A DNA stretch of 64,000 bases from a bacterium (GCA_021801565.1 JAJYXV010000015.1:155198-219197); one strand, 5' to 3'; positions 25,476 through 28,890 are shown, numbered from the stretch's first letter. Notes: generated by a model not told the origin, from the letters alone. Program-made: numbers and translations.

Positions 25476-27239
25476 ATGAAAGAAGAAAGAACGTGCCAAA
25501 ACTGTAAGAATTTGTTCATCATTGAAGATGAAGATTTTCAGTTCTACAAAAAGATTGGCGTGCCGGCACCGACATTTTGTCCCGAATGCAGAGAAATTCG
25601 ACGCATTGCATTTCGAAATGAGCGAGCACTTTATAAACGAAAGTGTGATTTATGCGGCGCGGTGGTAGTGTCGAGAGTATCTCCCGATAAGCCATATCCA
25701 ATGTATTGTAAAGAGTGTTGGTGGTCCGATAAATGGGATCCGCTGGATTATGGGAAGACATATGATTTTTCCCGTACGTTTTTTGAACAGTTCTCTAATC
25801 TGTTGTACATGACACCACATGTTTCTATATTTAACTCCAACACAGTGAATAGTGATTGGGTTAATCAAGAAACAGACGATAAAAACTGTTATTTAAATGT
25901 TGGTGGACATTATAACGAAGACTCTGCATATAATACATATGAAGTTTATGGAAAAAACTCTTTTGATAATTTTTGGTTTTTAAATAGTGATTTTGGATAC
26001 GACAATATTTATTGCAAGAGATGTTACAAAATAGTTGCGTCGCATGATTGTTTTGATTGTCGAGATACGTTTTTTTCTTATGATTGTCGTAATTGCTCAA
26101 ATATATTTGGGTGTGCTGGATTGCGAAACAAGAAATTTAATATTTTTAATAAACAGTATTCAAAGGATGAATATGAAACATTTTTAAAGAATAATTCAAT
26201 AAGTTCCTTAAAATCATATGAAGAACAAAAAAGAAAATCCTATGATTTTTGGAATTTAATTCCACGTCGATTTGCTAGTATTAATAAATCAGTAGATGTT
26301 TCTGGGGATAATATAGATGAGTCTAAAAATGCTCATTATTGTTTTGCTGCTGAAAAGGTTGAAAATGCGAAATTCTTTTATATTGCGGGATGGATTCGTG
26401 ACAGTTATGATCTCACATCACATGGTGCCGCGGAGCTTACATATGAGTGCTCGAGTGGGGGAGGAGAATATGACGCAAAGTTTGTTACCTATTGTATGAG
26501 TGGAGATCCATTAAAACAAATGCACTCGTCACATCTTTATTATTGTTTCGCCCTTGTCAGTTGTGAATATTGTTTTGGATGTGTTGGGTTAAGAAATAAA
26601 CAGTATTGTATTTTAAATAAACAATATACAAAAGGGGAATATGATGTGCTTGTCCCAAAACTCATTGAGCACATGAATACCATGCCATATGAGGGAAAAA
26701 ATGGACGTATGTACCGTTATGGTGAATTTTTCCCTATTGAAATTTCTCCATTTGGATACAACGAGACGGCGGCGATGGACTATTACTCGCTCACAAAAGA
26801 ACAGGTACTTCAAAGGGGGTATCCATGGTGTGACTACGAATCAGAAATAAAACATGAGTTTTCTGACTACGCGATTCCTGATGATATCAAGGATGTGGGG
26901 GATGAGATTCTTGAAAAAGTATTGAAGTGTGAAGTATCGGGAAAACCCTATCGGATTATCCCGATGGAACTCCAATTTTATCGCCGTATGGGTTTACCAA
27001 TCCCAACAAAGTCCCCGCTTCAGAGGCACAAGGACCGCATGGTGCGTCTTCTTCCACGAAAGCTTTTCAAGCGGACGTGTGATTGTGGCGGAAAGGTTTC
27101 CACAAATGGAGTATATGTAAACACAAGGGAGCATCAACACGGAGAAAAGAAATGTACTTCGGAAATGGAAACGCCATATTCTTCGGAGCGACCGGAAATA
27201 GTGTACTGCGAGGAGTGTTACCAGGCGGAAATTTATTAA
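25476..27239 (+). CDS. Cys-rich multi-zinc-ribbon protein, paralog 1 (unnamed family)
   Basis: N-terminal CQNC..FYKKIGVPAPTFCPECR..RRIAFRNER..CDLC..YCKECWWSDKWD. Two central C.[YN]CFGC.GLRNK.[YF]CI[LF]NKQY[ST]K.EY modules. C-terminal repeat of the N-module (ELQFYRRMGLPIPT...) and a CDCGG...YCEECYQAEIY ribbon. About 40 Cys. Confidence 0.5.
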   Translation: MKEERTCQNCKNLFIIEDEDFQFYKKIGVPAPTFCPECREIRRIAFRNERALYKRKCDLCGAVVVSRVSPDKPYPMYCKECWWSDKWDPLDYGKTYDFSRTFFEQFSNLLYMTPHVSIFNSNTVNSDWVNQETDDKNCYLNVGGHYNEDSAYNTYEVYGKNSFDNFWFLNSDFGYDNIYCKRCYKIVASHDCFDCRDTFFSYDCRNCSNIFGCAGLRNKKFNIFNKQYSKDEYETFLKNNSISSLKSYEEQKRKSYDFWNLIPRRFASINKSVDVSGDNIDESKNAHYCFAAEKVENAKFFYIAGWIRDSYDLTSHGAAELTYECSSGGGEYDAKFVTYCMSGDPLKQMHSSHLYYCFALVSCEYCFGCVGLRNKQYCILNKQYTKGEYDVLVPKLIEHMNTMPYEGKNGRMYRYGEFFPIEISPFGYNETAAMDYYSLTKEQVLQRGYPWCDYESEIKHEFSDYAIPDDIKDVGDEILEKVLKCEVSGKPYRIIPMELQFYRRMGLPIPTKSPLQRHKDRMVRLLPRKLFKRTCDCGGKVSTNGVYVNTREHQHGEKKCTSEMETPYSSERPEIVYCEECYQAEIY

Positions 27240-27243
27240 CTTT

Positions 27244-28890
27244 ATGAAGAAAACATGTGAGCATTGTAAAAAGGAATTTTTCATTACCGACGGAGAGCTT
27301 GGAATGTACGAAAAACTCGAACTGGAACTTCCACGGCTTTGTTTCTTTTGTCGGGTAAGCTTACATTTTTCCGTGTGGCCATTCGGTAAATTTCGGAAGG
27401 CAAAATCCGATCTCTCCGGGGAAAATATGATTACTGTGCTTTCCGCACAGAAAAGATATCCGATATACACACTTCATGAGTGGCATAGTGATGCGTGGGA
27501 TGCGATGGAACATGCAAGGGATTATGATCCAACATGCCCATTTTTCGATCAAATGAAAGACCTTCAGGAGAAGGTGCCACGCCCCCATCAAGGTGCGGGA
27601 AACAGCACTGATTGTGATTGGTGCGATGACGTATGGAATTCAAAAAACTGTTATCTCTCCCGCTCAATGGAGGAATGTGAGGATTTGCATTATGCGTACC
27701 GCGTATTTCGCGGAAAAAATTCAATTGATCTTGTATTTTGTTTTGACTTGGATAATTGCTTTGATTGCACGTATTGTTTTAATTCATACAATCTTTTTTA
27801 TTCACAGAATTCCCGCGATTGTATGGATTCGTATTTTCTTTTTGATTGTAGAAATTGCACAAATTGTTTTATGTGTTGGAATTTACGCGGAAAATCATAC
27901 TGTATTGAGAATGTGCAATATACGAAAGAAGAATATACAGAAAAAATAAAATCGTTAAATCTTACCTCATTTCAATCCATTGAAAATTTTCGGAAGCGGT
28001 TTAAGGAGATGATGAAACGTGATGTAGTGCATCGAGAGAATTTCAATATTCGGGTAAATAATTCTGAAGGGGAACATCTTATGGATATGAACAATTCTCA
28101 TAATTGTTTTGGAATTCAATTTTCCGAGGAGTGTTACAACTGTGTGCGTGGACTTACCGATAAAACAAACATTGATGCAAATGGGTGTTGGTATGCCGAA
28201 TTTATGGGGAATTCAAGTTGTTGTGTGAATGCATATGCACTCAAATATTCTTCGTGGTCTTCTTCACGATTTTCCGAATATCTCGATATCTGTAACGAAT
28301 GTGAATATTGTTTTGGGTGTGTCGGATTGAAAAAGAAAAAATATTGCATTTTGAACAGGCAATATACGAAAGAGGAATATGAAAAACTTCGTGAAAAAAT
28401 AATCGTCGATATGAAATCGAGACGGGAATATGGACTTTTCTTCCCGTATTCGATGAGCCCGCACCCGTATAATTTTTCAACGAGCTATACCTACTTTCCC
28501 GAAAAAACGAAAGAGGAAATTCTTGCGCTCGGCGGATATTGGGAAGATATCGACGAAACACGTGTTGAGGGAATGCCGACGAGCGACTTACCCGACGACA
28601 TACGTGATGTTTCCGATTCTATTACAACACAGGCACTTATTTGTCCTATAACCGGATGGAGATTCAATATTGCGCAAAAAGAGCTTCAATTCTATAAACA
28701 AAAGGGAATTCCATTGCCACGCATACATTTTGATGTTCGCATAAAGGAACGGATGAAATATATGACCGTACTTACCCCACGAGAACACTCCTGTATATTT
28801 TGCAAAAAGAAGATGACTATCTATTACCCAGAAACATGGGGATATGAAAAAATTGCTTGTGCCGAATGCTATCAGAAAGAAGTGGCATAA
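27244..28890 (+). CDS. Cys-rich multi-zinc-ribbon protein, paralog 2
   Basis: Same architecture: CEHCKKEF...LCFFCR..., CTNCFMCWNLRGKSYCIEN, CEYCFGCVGLKKKKYCILNRQYTKEEYE, ELQFYKQKGIPLPR..., CIFC...CAECYQKE. Confidence 0.5.
   Translation: MKKTCEHCKKEFFITDGELGMYEKLELELPRLCFFCRVSLHFSVWPFGKFRKAKSDLSGENMITVLSAQKRYPIYTLHEWHSDAWDAMEHARDYDPTCPFFDQMKDLQEKVPRPHQGAGNSTDCDWCDDVWNSKNCYLSRSMEECEDLHYAYRVFRGKNSIDLVFCFDLDNCFDCTYCFNSYNLFYSQNSRDCMDSYFLFDCRNCTNCFMCWNLRGKSYCIENVQYTKEEYTEKIKSLNLTSFQSIENFRKRFKEMMKRDVVHRENFNIRVNNSEGEHLMDMNNSHNCFGIQFSEECYNCVRGLTDKTNIDANGCWYAEFMGNSSCCVNAYALKYSSWSSSRFSEYLDICNECEYCFGCVGLKKKKYCILNRQYTKEEYEKLREKIIVDMKSRREYGLFFPYSMSPHPYNFSTSYTYFPEKTKEEILALGGYWEDIDETRVEGMPTSDLPDDIRDVSDSITTQALICPITGWRFNIAQKELQFYKQKGIPLPRIHFDVRIKERMKYMTVLTPREHSCIFCKKKMTIYYPETWGYEKIACAECYQKEVA

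Follow-up and report, generated by a model that had tools for sequence, protein, structure and literature searches.

We describe a family of cysteine-rich proteins, four paralogs of which (A to D) are encoded within 64,000 nucleotides (nt) of DNA from a bacterium (GCA_021801565.1 JAJYXV010000015.1:155198-219197; this whole stretch is hereafter the window, with positions counted from its first letter). These proteins very probably share an architecture in which a tandem pair of zinc fingers at either end encloses a central twin β-solenoid, and their genes recur next to genes for VirD4/TraD/HerA-like P-loop ATPases. A functional connection between the family and these ATPases is, in our estimate, an evenly balanced proposition, and the combined statement of architecture plus ATPase-linked function stands slightly below even.

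The four paralogs

Paralog A (25476..27239, an open reading frame (ORF) of 587 amino acids (aa) that belongs to the A-type orthogroup and is a 100% match to the database entry P0001) is followed after 4 nt on the same strand by B (27244..28890, a 548-aa ORF, the most divergent of the four). The pair formed by C (33318..35102, 594 aa) and D (35123..36829, 568 aa, D-type orthogroup) lies 4.4 kb downstream of A-B; all four genes are on the plus strand and together take up about 6.9 kb of the window. As the start of D we took the ATG of MAESETK rather than an upstream GTG at 35078. An initial annotation of the sequence had rightly counted four paralogs, although the span it gave, 25476-28890, takes in A and B only. 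Pairwise identity among the four is 32-42%, and B, C and D, each 33-42% identical to A, align with it end to end with 95 invariant columns. The proteins contain 31 (A), 35 (B), 31 (C) and 32 (D) cysteines, that is a cysteine content of 5-6%, which is fewer than the roughly 40 originally given; among 171 diverse members of the family the count has a median of 37 and a range of 22-48. The family lacks a transmembrane (TM)-like segment (maximum Kyte-Doolittle 19-residue mean 1.48) and the N-terminus is a zinc knuckle rather than a signal peptide, in line with what the initial annotation had concluded.

Tandem zinc fingers at both ends

Each end of the protein is a tandem pair of a zf_Tbcl and a zf_Tbcl_2 finger, duplicated N- and C-terminally. 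In A, the N-terminal zf_Tbcl treble-clef finger spans residues 4-43 (25485..25604, plus strand; C7, C10, C35, C38) and the zf_Tbcl_2 finger residues 51-84 (25626..25727, plus strand), with the spacing C57-x2-C60-x17-C78-x2-C81. The C-terminal repeat of both fingers covers residues 483-584 (26922..27227, plus strand). A profile-profile comparison of this region with residues 5-84 by hhalign, for which the pieces were cut from an 84-sequence alignment of the family, gave a probability of 99% and an E-value of 8.6e-18, and thus bears out the earlier proposal that the N-terminal module returns near the C-terminus.

The individual fingers are unevenly preserved. The opening signature CxxC...FxI...FYKK..VP.PT.CP.CR is found in all four paralogs; the zf_Tbcl_2 finger that follows (C..C...YC..CWW) is intact only in A and D, all four of its cysteines being gone in B and C, so that the opening module ascribed to every paralog by the initial annotation holds for its first finger but not for its second. 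The C-terminal zf_Tbcl is degenerate in A and B, with C485 as the sole cysteine kept, and the C-terminal zf_Tbcl_2 is intact in A (C535, C560, C578, C581) and carries a 22-residue insert in A and C.

Although the family had been put forward as unrecognized, its ends thus correspond to domains already in Pfam; that description stands for the protein as a whole, which is uncharacterized, and for its center, to which profile searches assign no domain. The copies in the window score 15.7-17.3 bits against Pfam zf_Tbcl (PF13451, 'probable treble clef domain'; E 0.005-0.014), residues 4-43 of A giving the sub-threshold 17.3 bits against a gathering score of 24, which the relative P0064 passes with 26.1 bits; 5 of 21 paralogs match at E<0.01, the best at 1.8e-5. 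For zf_Tbcl_2 (PF23477, the equivalent of the NCBIfam model TIGR04272 'CxxC-x17-CxxC domain') the C-terminal copy of P0064 reaches 30.2 bits and P0065 reaches 30.0 bits, the gathering score being 27, and 6 of 21 paralogs match (best E 1.7e-7), A itself giving a weak match to TIGR04272 (E 0.14). In the AlphaFold model each finger consists of a CxxC knuckle in a β-hairpin and another CxxC where a helix begins: strands 3-6 and 13-16 of A flank C7/C10, and helix 36-44 begins at C35/C38. On this model the terminal fingers show the treble-clef layout. Several Arg/Lys positions in the post-knuckle helices (R39, R42, R43, R47, R517, R521 and R533) are at least 90% conserved. Taken over their full length the proteins are slightly acidic (median pI 6.1), the region 403-480 carrying a net charge of -6, and the median net charge is +6 in the C-terminal and +2 in the N-terminal zf_Tbcl region. 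Neither the Pfam and NCBIfam entries nor the open-access papers and preprints searched give a function or ligand for zf_Tbcl or zf_Tbcl_2.

A modeled, duplicated 12-residue β-solenoid

The center of the protein is likewise duplicated. The first half in A comprises residues 132-239 (25869..26192, plus strand), with DSSP strands in a 12-residue register, and the second residues 263-402 (26262..26681, plus strand), with strands over 273-379 and a helix at 386-402. Comparison of residues 129-239 with 280-395 by hhalign yields a probability of 99.6% and an E-value of 1.9e-24, sustaining the two central modules proposed at the outset, and the 43-residue cores around CFGCxGLRNKxYCIxNxQYxKEEY alone give E 5e-25. 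Judged by these profile comparisons, both internal duplications, terminal and central, are real and far beyond chance. The central consensus first proposed matches no copy in its literal form, and a relaxed pattern finds six of the eight modules in the window; the first copy of A and the second copy of D are degenerate.

An AlphaFold2 model of A built from the 84-sequence alignment has a mean pLDDT (predicted local distance difference test score) of 89.9 and a pTM (predicted template modeling score) of 0.88, with only residues ~120-160 below a pLDDT of 70. DSSP assigns strands at 172-175, 184-187, 196-199, 208-211 and 220-223, that is one four-residue strand per 12 residues over 172-223, followed by a helix at 230-239; the pattern returns at 351-379, again followed by the helix 386-402. 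When the sequence is written in rows of 12, Cys, Ser or small hydrophobic residues occupy every third position, and the substitution spectra at i, i+3, i+6 and i+9 run through C/S/V/I/L/T/A/G. On the model, then, the center is an internally duplicated narrow β-solenoid with 12 residues per turn. The first half closes with a last turn of the form FGCxGLRNKxYxIxNxQYxKEEY and the second with CFGCxGLRNKxYCILNKQYxKEEY; this FGC-GLRNK-YCI-N-QY-KEEY element, which closes each solenoid half, is the most conserved motif of the family, and we read the modeled helix after each last turn as a cap. Given the periodicity and the substitution pattern, every third residue of the solenoid (Cys, Ser, small or aliphatic) would point into the core, which would make the cysteines core-lining.

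A Foldseek search of the PDB with the whole model of A returned only low-probability left-handed β-helix matches, with query-normalized TM-scores of at most 0.11, and sequence searches of the PDB with A and with a 21-member profile found nothing significant. For the central ~400 residues Pfam, NCBIfam and PADLOC contain no model, nor is there a relative of solved structure.

Which cysteines are predicted to bind metal

We followed the cysteines through 22 paralogs from four genomes and then through 171 members, including 149 representatives of 50%-identity clusters. All four ligands are present in 157 of the 171 for the N-terminal zf_Tbcl and in 167 for the C-terminal zf_Tbcl_2. The N-terminal zf_Tbcl_2 is lost in half of the family and the C-terminal zf_Tbcl in a third. 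In the former, members with 0/1/2/3/4 cysteines number 30/61/1/0/79, the expectation under independence being 4.7/33.7/66.6/51.8/14.2; the phi coefficient of co-presence is 0.99-1.00 among positions 60/78/81 of this finger and 0.81-0.95 among 488/513/516 of the C-terminal zf_Tbcl. Such all-or-none loss is the behavior expected of four-ligand metal sites, and it shows that the proteins can do without two of the four.

The solenoid behaves otherwise. Across its ~40 variable cysteine columns the maximum pairwise phi is 0.35, and columns 180/183/186/189 show counts of 20/62/68/19/2 against 20/64/64/21/2 expected from independence; throughout the 171 members these cysteines are freely exchanged for Ser, Val, Ile, Leu, Thr, Ala and Gly. 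Pairs at i and i+6, which would lie opposite one another in a 12-residue coil, have phi values of at most 0.13 and down to -0.45, and this lack of correlation or outright anti-correlation argues against disulfides in the style of the Tenebrio molitor antifreeze protein (TmAFP). We also considered an Fe-S or ferredoxin-like reading of the CxxCxxC runs and rejected it, as the cysteines vary independently and swap with aliphatic residues, and the only Fer4 match has an E-value of 0.15. The many structural zinc sites suggested by the initial annotation are therefore retained for the terminal treble-clef modules and set aside for the central arrays (phi of at most 0.35, as opposed to 0.81-1.00 in the fingers). 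From these patterns we predict at most four zinc sites per protein, all of them terminal, of which two to four are intact in any paralog; the cysteines present predict three in A, two in B, three in C and four in D.

Distribution of the family and its paralog arrays

A word-indexed search recovered at least 7,994 relatives among 8,000 scored candidates, and in an exhaustive search with a profile 5,224 clusters among 1.84 billion 50%-identity representatives passed E<=1e-3, and 2,224 passed E<=1e-30. The 150 best-scoring clusters are nearly all 540-600 aa long; domain fusions were considered as a functional clue and discarded, the longer database members being mis-called starts. Source databases name these proteins only 'hypothetical protein' or 'zinc-ribbon domain containing protein', and NCBIfam holds no meaningful match for the family. 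The organisms named in the search for relatives belong throughout to Patescibacteria/Parcubacteria lineages (Nomura-, Giovannoni-, Jorgensen-, Wolfe-, Lipton-, Staskawicz-, Sungii-, Niyogi-, Kuenen- and Gribaldobacteria, Paceibacterota, Minisyncoccia). When one genome was scanned for each GTDB species, at least 520 loci came to light; 80 were kept, two of them labeled Gammaproteobacteria and the rest Patescibacteria-type or unclassified 'bacterium'. The two (L069 and L075) are short contigs labeled 'uncultured Gammaproteobacteria', and many others carry the label 'uncultured Candidatus Saccharibacteria'; both kinds of label are probably binning or labeling artefacts and do not reflect a real presence of the family beyond Parcubacteria-type lineages. 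No member was found in GenBank phages (tblastn) or in the IMG/VR scans, and on this ground we discarded a phage or mobile-element origin.

The open-access papers and preprints searched, also with regard to VirD4, zinc or solenoids in the candidate phyla radiation (CPR), hold nothing on the family, zf_Tbcl, PF13451, TIGR04272 or DUF8128. The CPR protein-family paper PMC6744442 makes no mention of cysteine, zinc or VirD4.

In 84 loci, almost all from Patescibacteria genomes, we counted 242 family ORFs, in tandem arrays of up to nine genes (~17 kb) that are nearly always co-oriented. Orthologs in other genomes are far closer than paralogs within this one: A-type orthologs are 58-67% and the D-type (L003, L005) 71% identical, as against 32-42% between the paralogs of this genome, and B has its best match in another genome at 45% (L5_5). 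On what appears to be one contig (32,593 nt in both records) an A-type ortholog is 79% identical, versus 63% for the neighboring DUF8128 protein. By these comparisons the paralogs are old duplications under purifying selection and not a recent or fast-evolving expansion. The 5' ends of C and D form a local departure from this divergence: the first ~87 coding nt plus 4 nt upstream (33318-33404 in C, 35123-35209 in D) differ by one base, beyond which the genes diverge sharply, the proteins being only ~40% identical overall. This looks like a recent gene conversion between tandem paralogs, or else a constraint at the nucleic-acid level on the 5' end.

Conserved gene neighborhoods

All ORFs of the 84 loci were clustered, with antisense shadow ORFs removed. 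The only specific recurrent neighbor of the family proved to be a VirD4/TraD/HerA-like P-loop ATPase, found in 33 of the 84 loci and in 18 of the 35 with full 10-kb flanks, the other neighbors being housekeeping genes. The ATPase ORF lies less than 1 kb from a family gene in 39 of 43 cases (median gap 325 bp) and on the same strand in 41 of 43. Two types of ATPase can be told apart, a short one of ~485-500 aa and a long one of ~620-830 aa with a zf_Tbcl_2 finger and a low-complexity tail.

Both types occur in the window, where all genes of the cluster are on the plus strand. It is headed by a gene for a Sigma-70 region 4 and HARE-HTH protein (19942..20991), conserved in 12 loci, which is followed by a DUF8128 membrane protein with four N-terminal helices and an α/β domain (21143..22588), a small 176-aa protein with a hydrophobic N-terminal stretch (22595..23125), found between DUF8128 and ATPase-S in eight loci and giving no family match, and the short, soluble ATPase-S (23122..24594, 490 aa). 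A CutA1 homolog (24787..25092; Pfam PF03091, E 2.6e-30), which separates ATPase-S from the array in 11 loci, and an ORF of 58 aa that includes a hydrophobic stretch (25207..25383), at whose position genes of 58-66 aa are called in L001-L003 and L005, precede A. ATPase-L (29040..30944, 634 aa) follows B; it bears a zf_Tbcl_2 finger at residues 443-473 (nt 30366-30458; Pfam 54.5 bits, and 56.2 bits against TIGR04272 with a cut-off of 36), which recurs in long ATPases at 11 other loci, and a tail of low complexity in which Lys, Glu, Gln and Pro abound. Terminator-like hairpins, which are consensus matches only, bracket A, B and ATPase-L at 25411-25426 and 30947-30980.

The gene order of the window, which we term type 1, is SecD-SecF-(Sig70r4/HARE-HTH)-DUF8128-small TM protein-ATPase-S-CutA1-family array-(ATPase-L); in L009, L034 and L042 the family genes lie between the DUF8128/small TM protein genes and ATPase-S. 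The type 2 order is PaaX-like< DnaK> ATPase-L> family array ATPase-S> DnaJ>. In type-2 loci from Nomurabacteria/Paceibacterota (L038, L059, L007, L030, L081, L085) dnaK and/or dnaJ flank the ATPase-L/family/ATPase-S module, which could reflect co-expression with chaperones or mere synteny.

ATPase-S and ATPase-L both match the Pfam families TrwB_AAD_bind, DUF87, T4SS-DNA_transf and TraG-D_C; ATPase-L reaches E 4.5e-17 with TrwB_AAD_bind, and its matches to TrwB_AAD_bind, T4SS-DNA_transf and TraG-D_C pass the Pfam thresholds. The only solved sequence relative is TrwB, at E 1.9e-4 for ATPase-L and in the P-loop region only. By eye neither ATPase has a hydrophobic N-terminal segment. A model of the DUF8128 protein from 55 homologs has a pLDDT of 87, and its modeled α/β domain resembles the N-terminal domain of VirB4. 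The phage family phrog_5156 (824 positions, unknown function; Bacillus phage SPO1 gp27.4, phage G gp156) is matched by DUF8128 at positions 88-201 and by the ATPases at 391-816 (E 7e-54 for ATPase-S and 1.5e-58); as it spans both, DUF8128 and ATPase-S together look like the two pieces of a membrane-anchored VirB4-like motor, with ATPase-L apparently its VirD4-like partner. PADLOC gave no match for A, B, DUF8128 or the small TM protein, and for the ATPases only weak mad8/HerA matches.

The window also holds FtsA, FtsZ, HisRS, SecA, SecDF, EF-P, MnmA, RmuC, ComEC and 16S rRNA, a FtsA/FtsZ/SecA-type gene content that marks it as core chromosome; it matches the assembly GCA_027423565.1. Its 16S rRNA gene (61260-62844) is complete and bacterial, and at 1,585 nt, as compared with a model of 1,533 positions, may carry a small insertion. 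Over positions 1-64000 every 2-kb bin except one has a positive GC skew, the long ORFs are mostly on the plus strand and the G+C content is about 37%.

Functional interpretation

The reading we favor is that the family proteins would work with the putative split VirB4-like motor (DUF8128 plus ATPase-S) and the zinc-fingered, VirD4-like ATPase-L, serving, as clients (cargo) or as adaptors, a machine that is peculiar to Patescibacteria and goes back to the ATPases of type IV secretion. Recognition by the ATPases would take place through the terminal finger pairs, which would act as handles; the anciently diverged paralogs might each have a distinct role, and the proteins themselves would be non-enzymatic, rigid binding scaffolds, as the invariant residues include no obvious catalytic constellation and are mostly structural-looking (Asn 225, Asn 381, Gly, aromatics and ligand Cys). 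The association with the ATPases persists across the type-1 and type-2 chromosomal settings, which supports the link. The presence of a zf_Tbcl_2 finger in ATPase-L itself and the adjacency of the basic C-terminal pair (+6) to the acidic region (-6) speak for the handles. Zinc fingers and reduced cysteines would suit the bacterial cytoplasm or the cytoplasm of a recipient host. The specific mechanism of finger handles and cargo is nonetheless doubtful in our judgment, and only a little less so is the wider proposition that the family, the split VirB4-like pair and ATPase-L constitute a previously unrecognized, Patescibacteria-specific translocation system with 4-10 paralogs as cargo or substrate-selecting adaptors.

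Several observations weigh against this reading. The tie of the family to the ATPases is drawn from gene neighborhood, and about half of the loci with full flanks lack an ATPase within 10 kb; many of them, however, may be secondary arrays of the C-D kind. The ATPases score far below the curated cut-offs of the NCBIfam TraD, VirD4-like, TrbE, CedD and VirB4 models, and the scan of the cluster genes and of the larger ORFs in the window turned up no VirB6, VirB8 or VirB1-type gene, so that a complete secretion channel is not evident in the window; a protein with an SLT domain is encoded ~29 kb away (57927-59423). A protein made of zinc fingers and a β-solenoid would have to unfold to pass a type IV channel, and the strong conservation of the orthogroups is unlike that of fast-evolving effectors. 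The inward-facing cysteine ladder, for its part, rests on periodicity and substitution spectra.

The most serious competitor, which we nevertheless hold to be improbable, makes the family nucleic-acid-binding accessories whose basic treble-clef helices grip DNA or RNA for the VirB4/VirD4-like translocases, in a system for DNA uptake or transfer; organisms of this group depend on scavenged nucleic acids. The positive charge of both zf_Tbcl regions and the conserved Arg/Lys of the post-knuckle helices would suit such a role, as would the ATPase matches to the DNA-translocating TrwB_AAD_bind and T4SS-DNA_transf families and, weakly, to TraD and CedD, and the surroundings of the window's array, with a Sig70r4/HARE-HTH protein at the head of the cluster, ComEC after D and RmuC ~3 kb further on (39849-40901). 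Yet the proteins as a whole are mildly acidic, no recognized nucleic-acid-binding domain was found in them, the literature searched demonstrates no ligand for either finger, and ComEC does not recur among the conserved neighbors of the 84 loci, for which reason a link to competence was dropped. ComEC appears to be split in this window, DUF4131 plus Competence (36900-38396, 498 aa) being encoded apart from a metallo-β-lactamase protein (38406-39320, 304 aa).

Two further explanations appear to us distinctly remote, and about equally so. One would have exported, disulfide-stabilized β-solenoids comparable to the beetle antifreeze protein, acting as adhesins or surface proteins of an episymbiont, and could draw on the high cysteine content and on the tandem arrays beside secretion-type ATPases; it is at odds with the failure of cysteines at i and i+6 to co-occur, with the lack of a signal peptide, a TM segment and a threonine-rich ice-binding face, and with the four zinc fingers, since CxxC...CxxC fingers fit a reducing compartment. 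The other dispenses with the ATPases and would give the family a role in the handling of metals, in redox or in proteostasis, as a zinc/thiol buffer or a co-chaperone-like scaffold acting with DnaK/DnaJ and CutA1. The cysteine content, the 'divalent ion tolerance' protein CutA1 in 11 loci and the dnaK and/or dnaJ genes flanking the module in about 10 loci (with the module between both in L038 and L059) fit it, but the solenoid cysteines are individually dispensable and swap with aliphatic residues, as suits packing and not metal or redox chemistry, and DnaK, DnaJ and CutA1 are each less widespread among the loci than the ATPase and confined to certain gene orders, whereas the ATPase link persists in every arrangement.

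Significance

Patescibacteria (CPR) genomes are roughly 1 Mb in size, and most of their lineage-specific genes are without known function; the family makes up a striking portion of this uncharted gene content. The conservation of the orthogroups, the almost exclusively Patescibacteria named sources and the tie to secretion-type ATPases together suggest that the family matters to the way of life of these ultra-small bacteria, which depend on hosts. The end domains were already catalogued in Pfam and NCBIfam. DUF8128 receives its first structural assignment, which on the evidence of its model is that of a probable VirB4-N-domain-like membrane anchor. The analysis supplies predictions of the zinc stoichiometry of each paralog, of a reduced, cysteine-lined core and of docking to the zinc-fingered VirD4-like ATPase. 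If correct, the solenoid would be the first reduced, cysteine-lined 12-residue β-helix in a cytoplasmic protein, and the ATPase link would offer a way into the traffic of macromolecules between Patescibacteria and their hosts; cargo of the favored kind could be delivered, for example, into the host cell of an episymbiont.

Comparison with known systems

The first finger of each pair shares with zf_Tbcl (PF13451) the CxxC-x24-CxxC arrangement and the FY.K.G.P.P motif. The Pfam and NCBIfam entries for zf_Tbcl and zf_Tbcl_2 describe only probable or unnamed domains, whereas in this family the two form a fixed tandem pair that occurs twice per protein and flanks ~400 residues without any model. 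LIM domains, such as those of CRP1/CRP2, likewise place two consecutive zinc fingers in one small module; the C-terminal finger weakly resembles CRP LIM profiles (E 0.34-2) and one member matches Pfam LIM at E 0.009, but the similarity is not significant, the ligand spacing and the FY.K.G.P.P helix differ, and LIM domains are eukaryotic. By analogy, the likeness to LIM suggests a protein-docking role for the finger pair.

With TmAFP-type β-helices the solenoid has in common the 12 residues per coil and, by our reading, the burial of every third position. Homology at the sequence or fold level is not found: the Tenebrio molitor antifreeze protein (1ezg), the ryegrass ice-binding protein (3ult) and curli CsgA (8c50) are 5-12% identical, with no sequence relationship. 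The family departs from these narrow β-solenoids in having neither an ice-binding face nor disulfide-type covariation, in being presumably intracellular, and in its duplication, the conserved last turn and helix of each half and the zinc-finger flanks. A weak link exists to phrog_15341, a Campylobacter phage family of CxxCxxC-repeat proteins of unknown function, which eight of 21 members match through the solenoid (best E 2.3e-7) and in which Cys recurs at every third residue, as in the core described here; the match may be compositional, tblastn reaches only E 0.07, and the phage protein has no zinc fingers, no FGC-GLRNK-YCI-N-QY-KEEY last turn and no capping helix. UZV40580.1 of Campylobacter phage vB_CjeM_WX1 (L087 2432-2992), grouped with phrog_15341, is 186 aa of almost wholly CxxCxxC run and matches no Pfam family.

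Type IV secretion offers a parallel to the gene neighborhood, whose ATPases are VirD4/TraD/HerA-like and which includes a VirB4-N-domain-like membrane protein; the differences are that the ATPase matches fall far below family cut-offs, that the ATPases lack a hydrophobic N-terminal segment and that the VirB4-like protein is split. Type IV substrates are often families encoded beside ATPases, as are the arrays of this family with their invariant terminal modules, and VirD4 recognizes effectors by a shared conserved C-terminal domain in the XVIPCD effectors of Xanthomonas; set against such substrates, the candidates described here carry no enzymatic payload and are strongly conserved.

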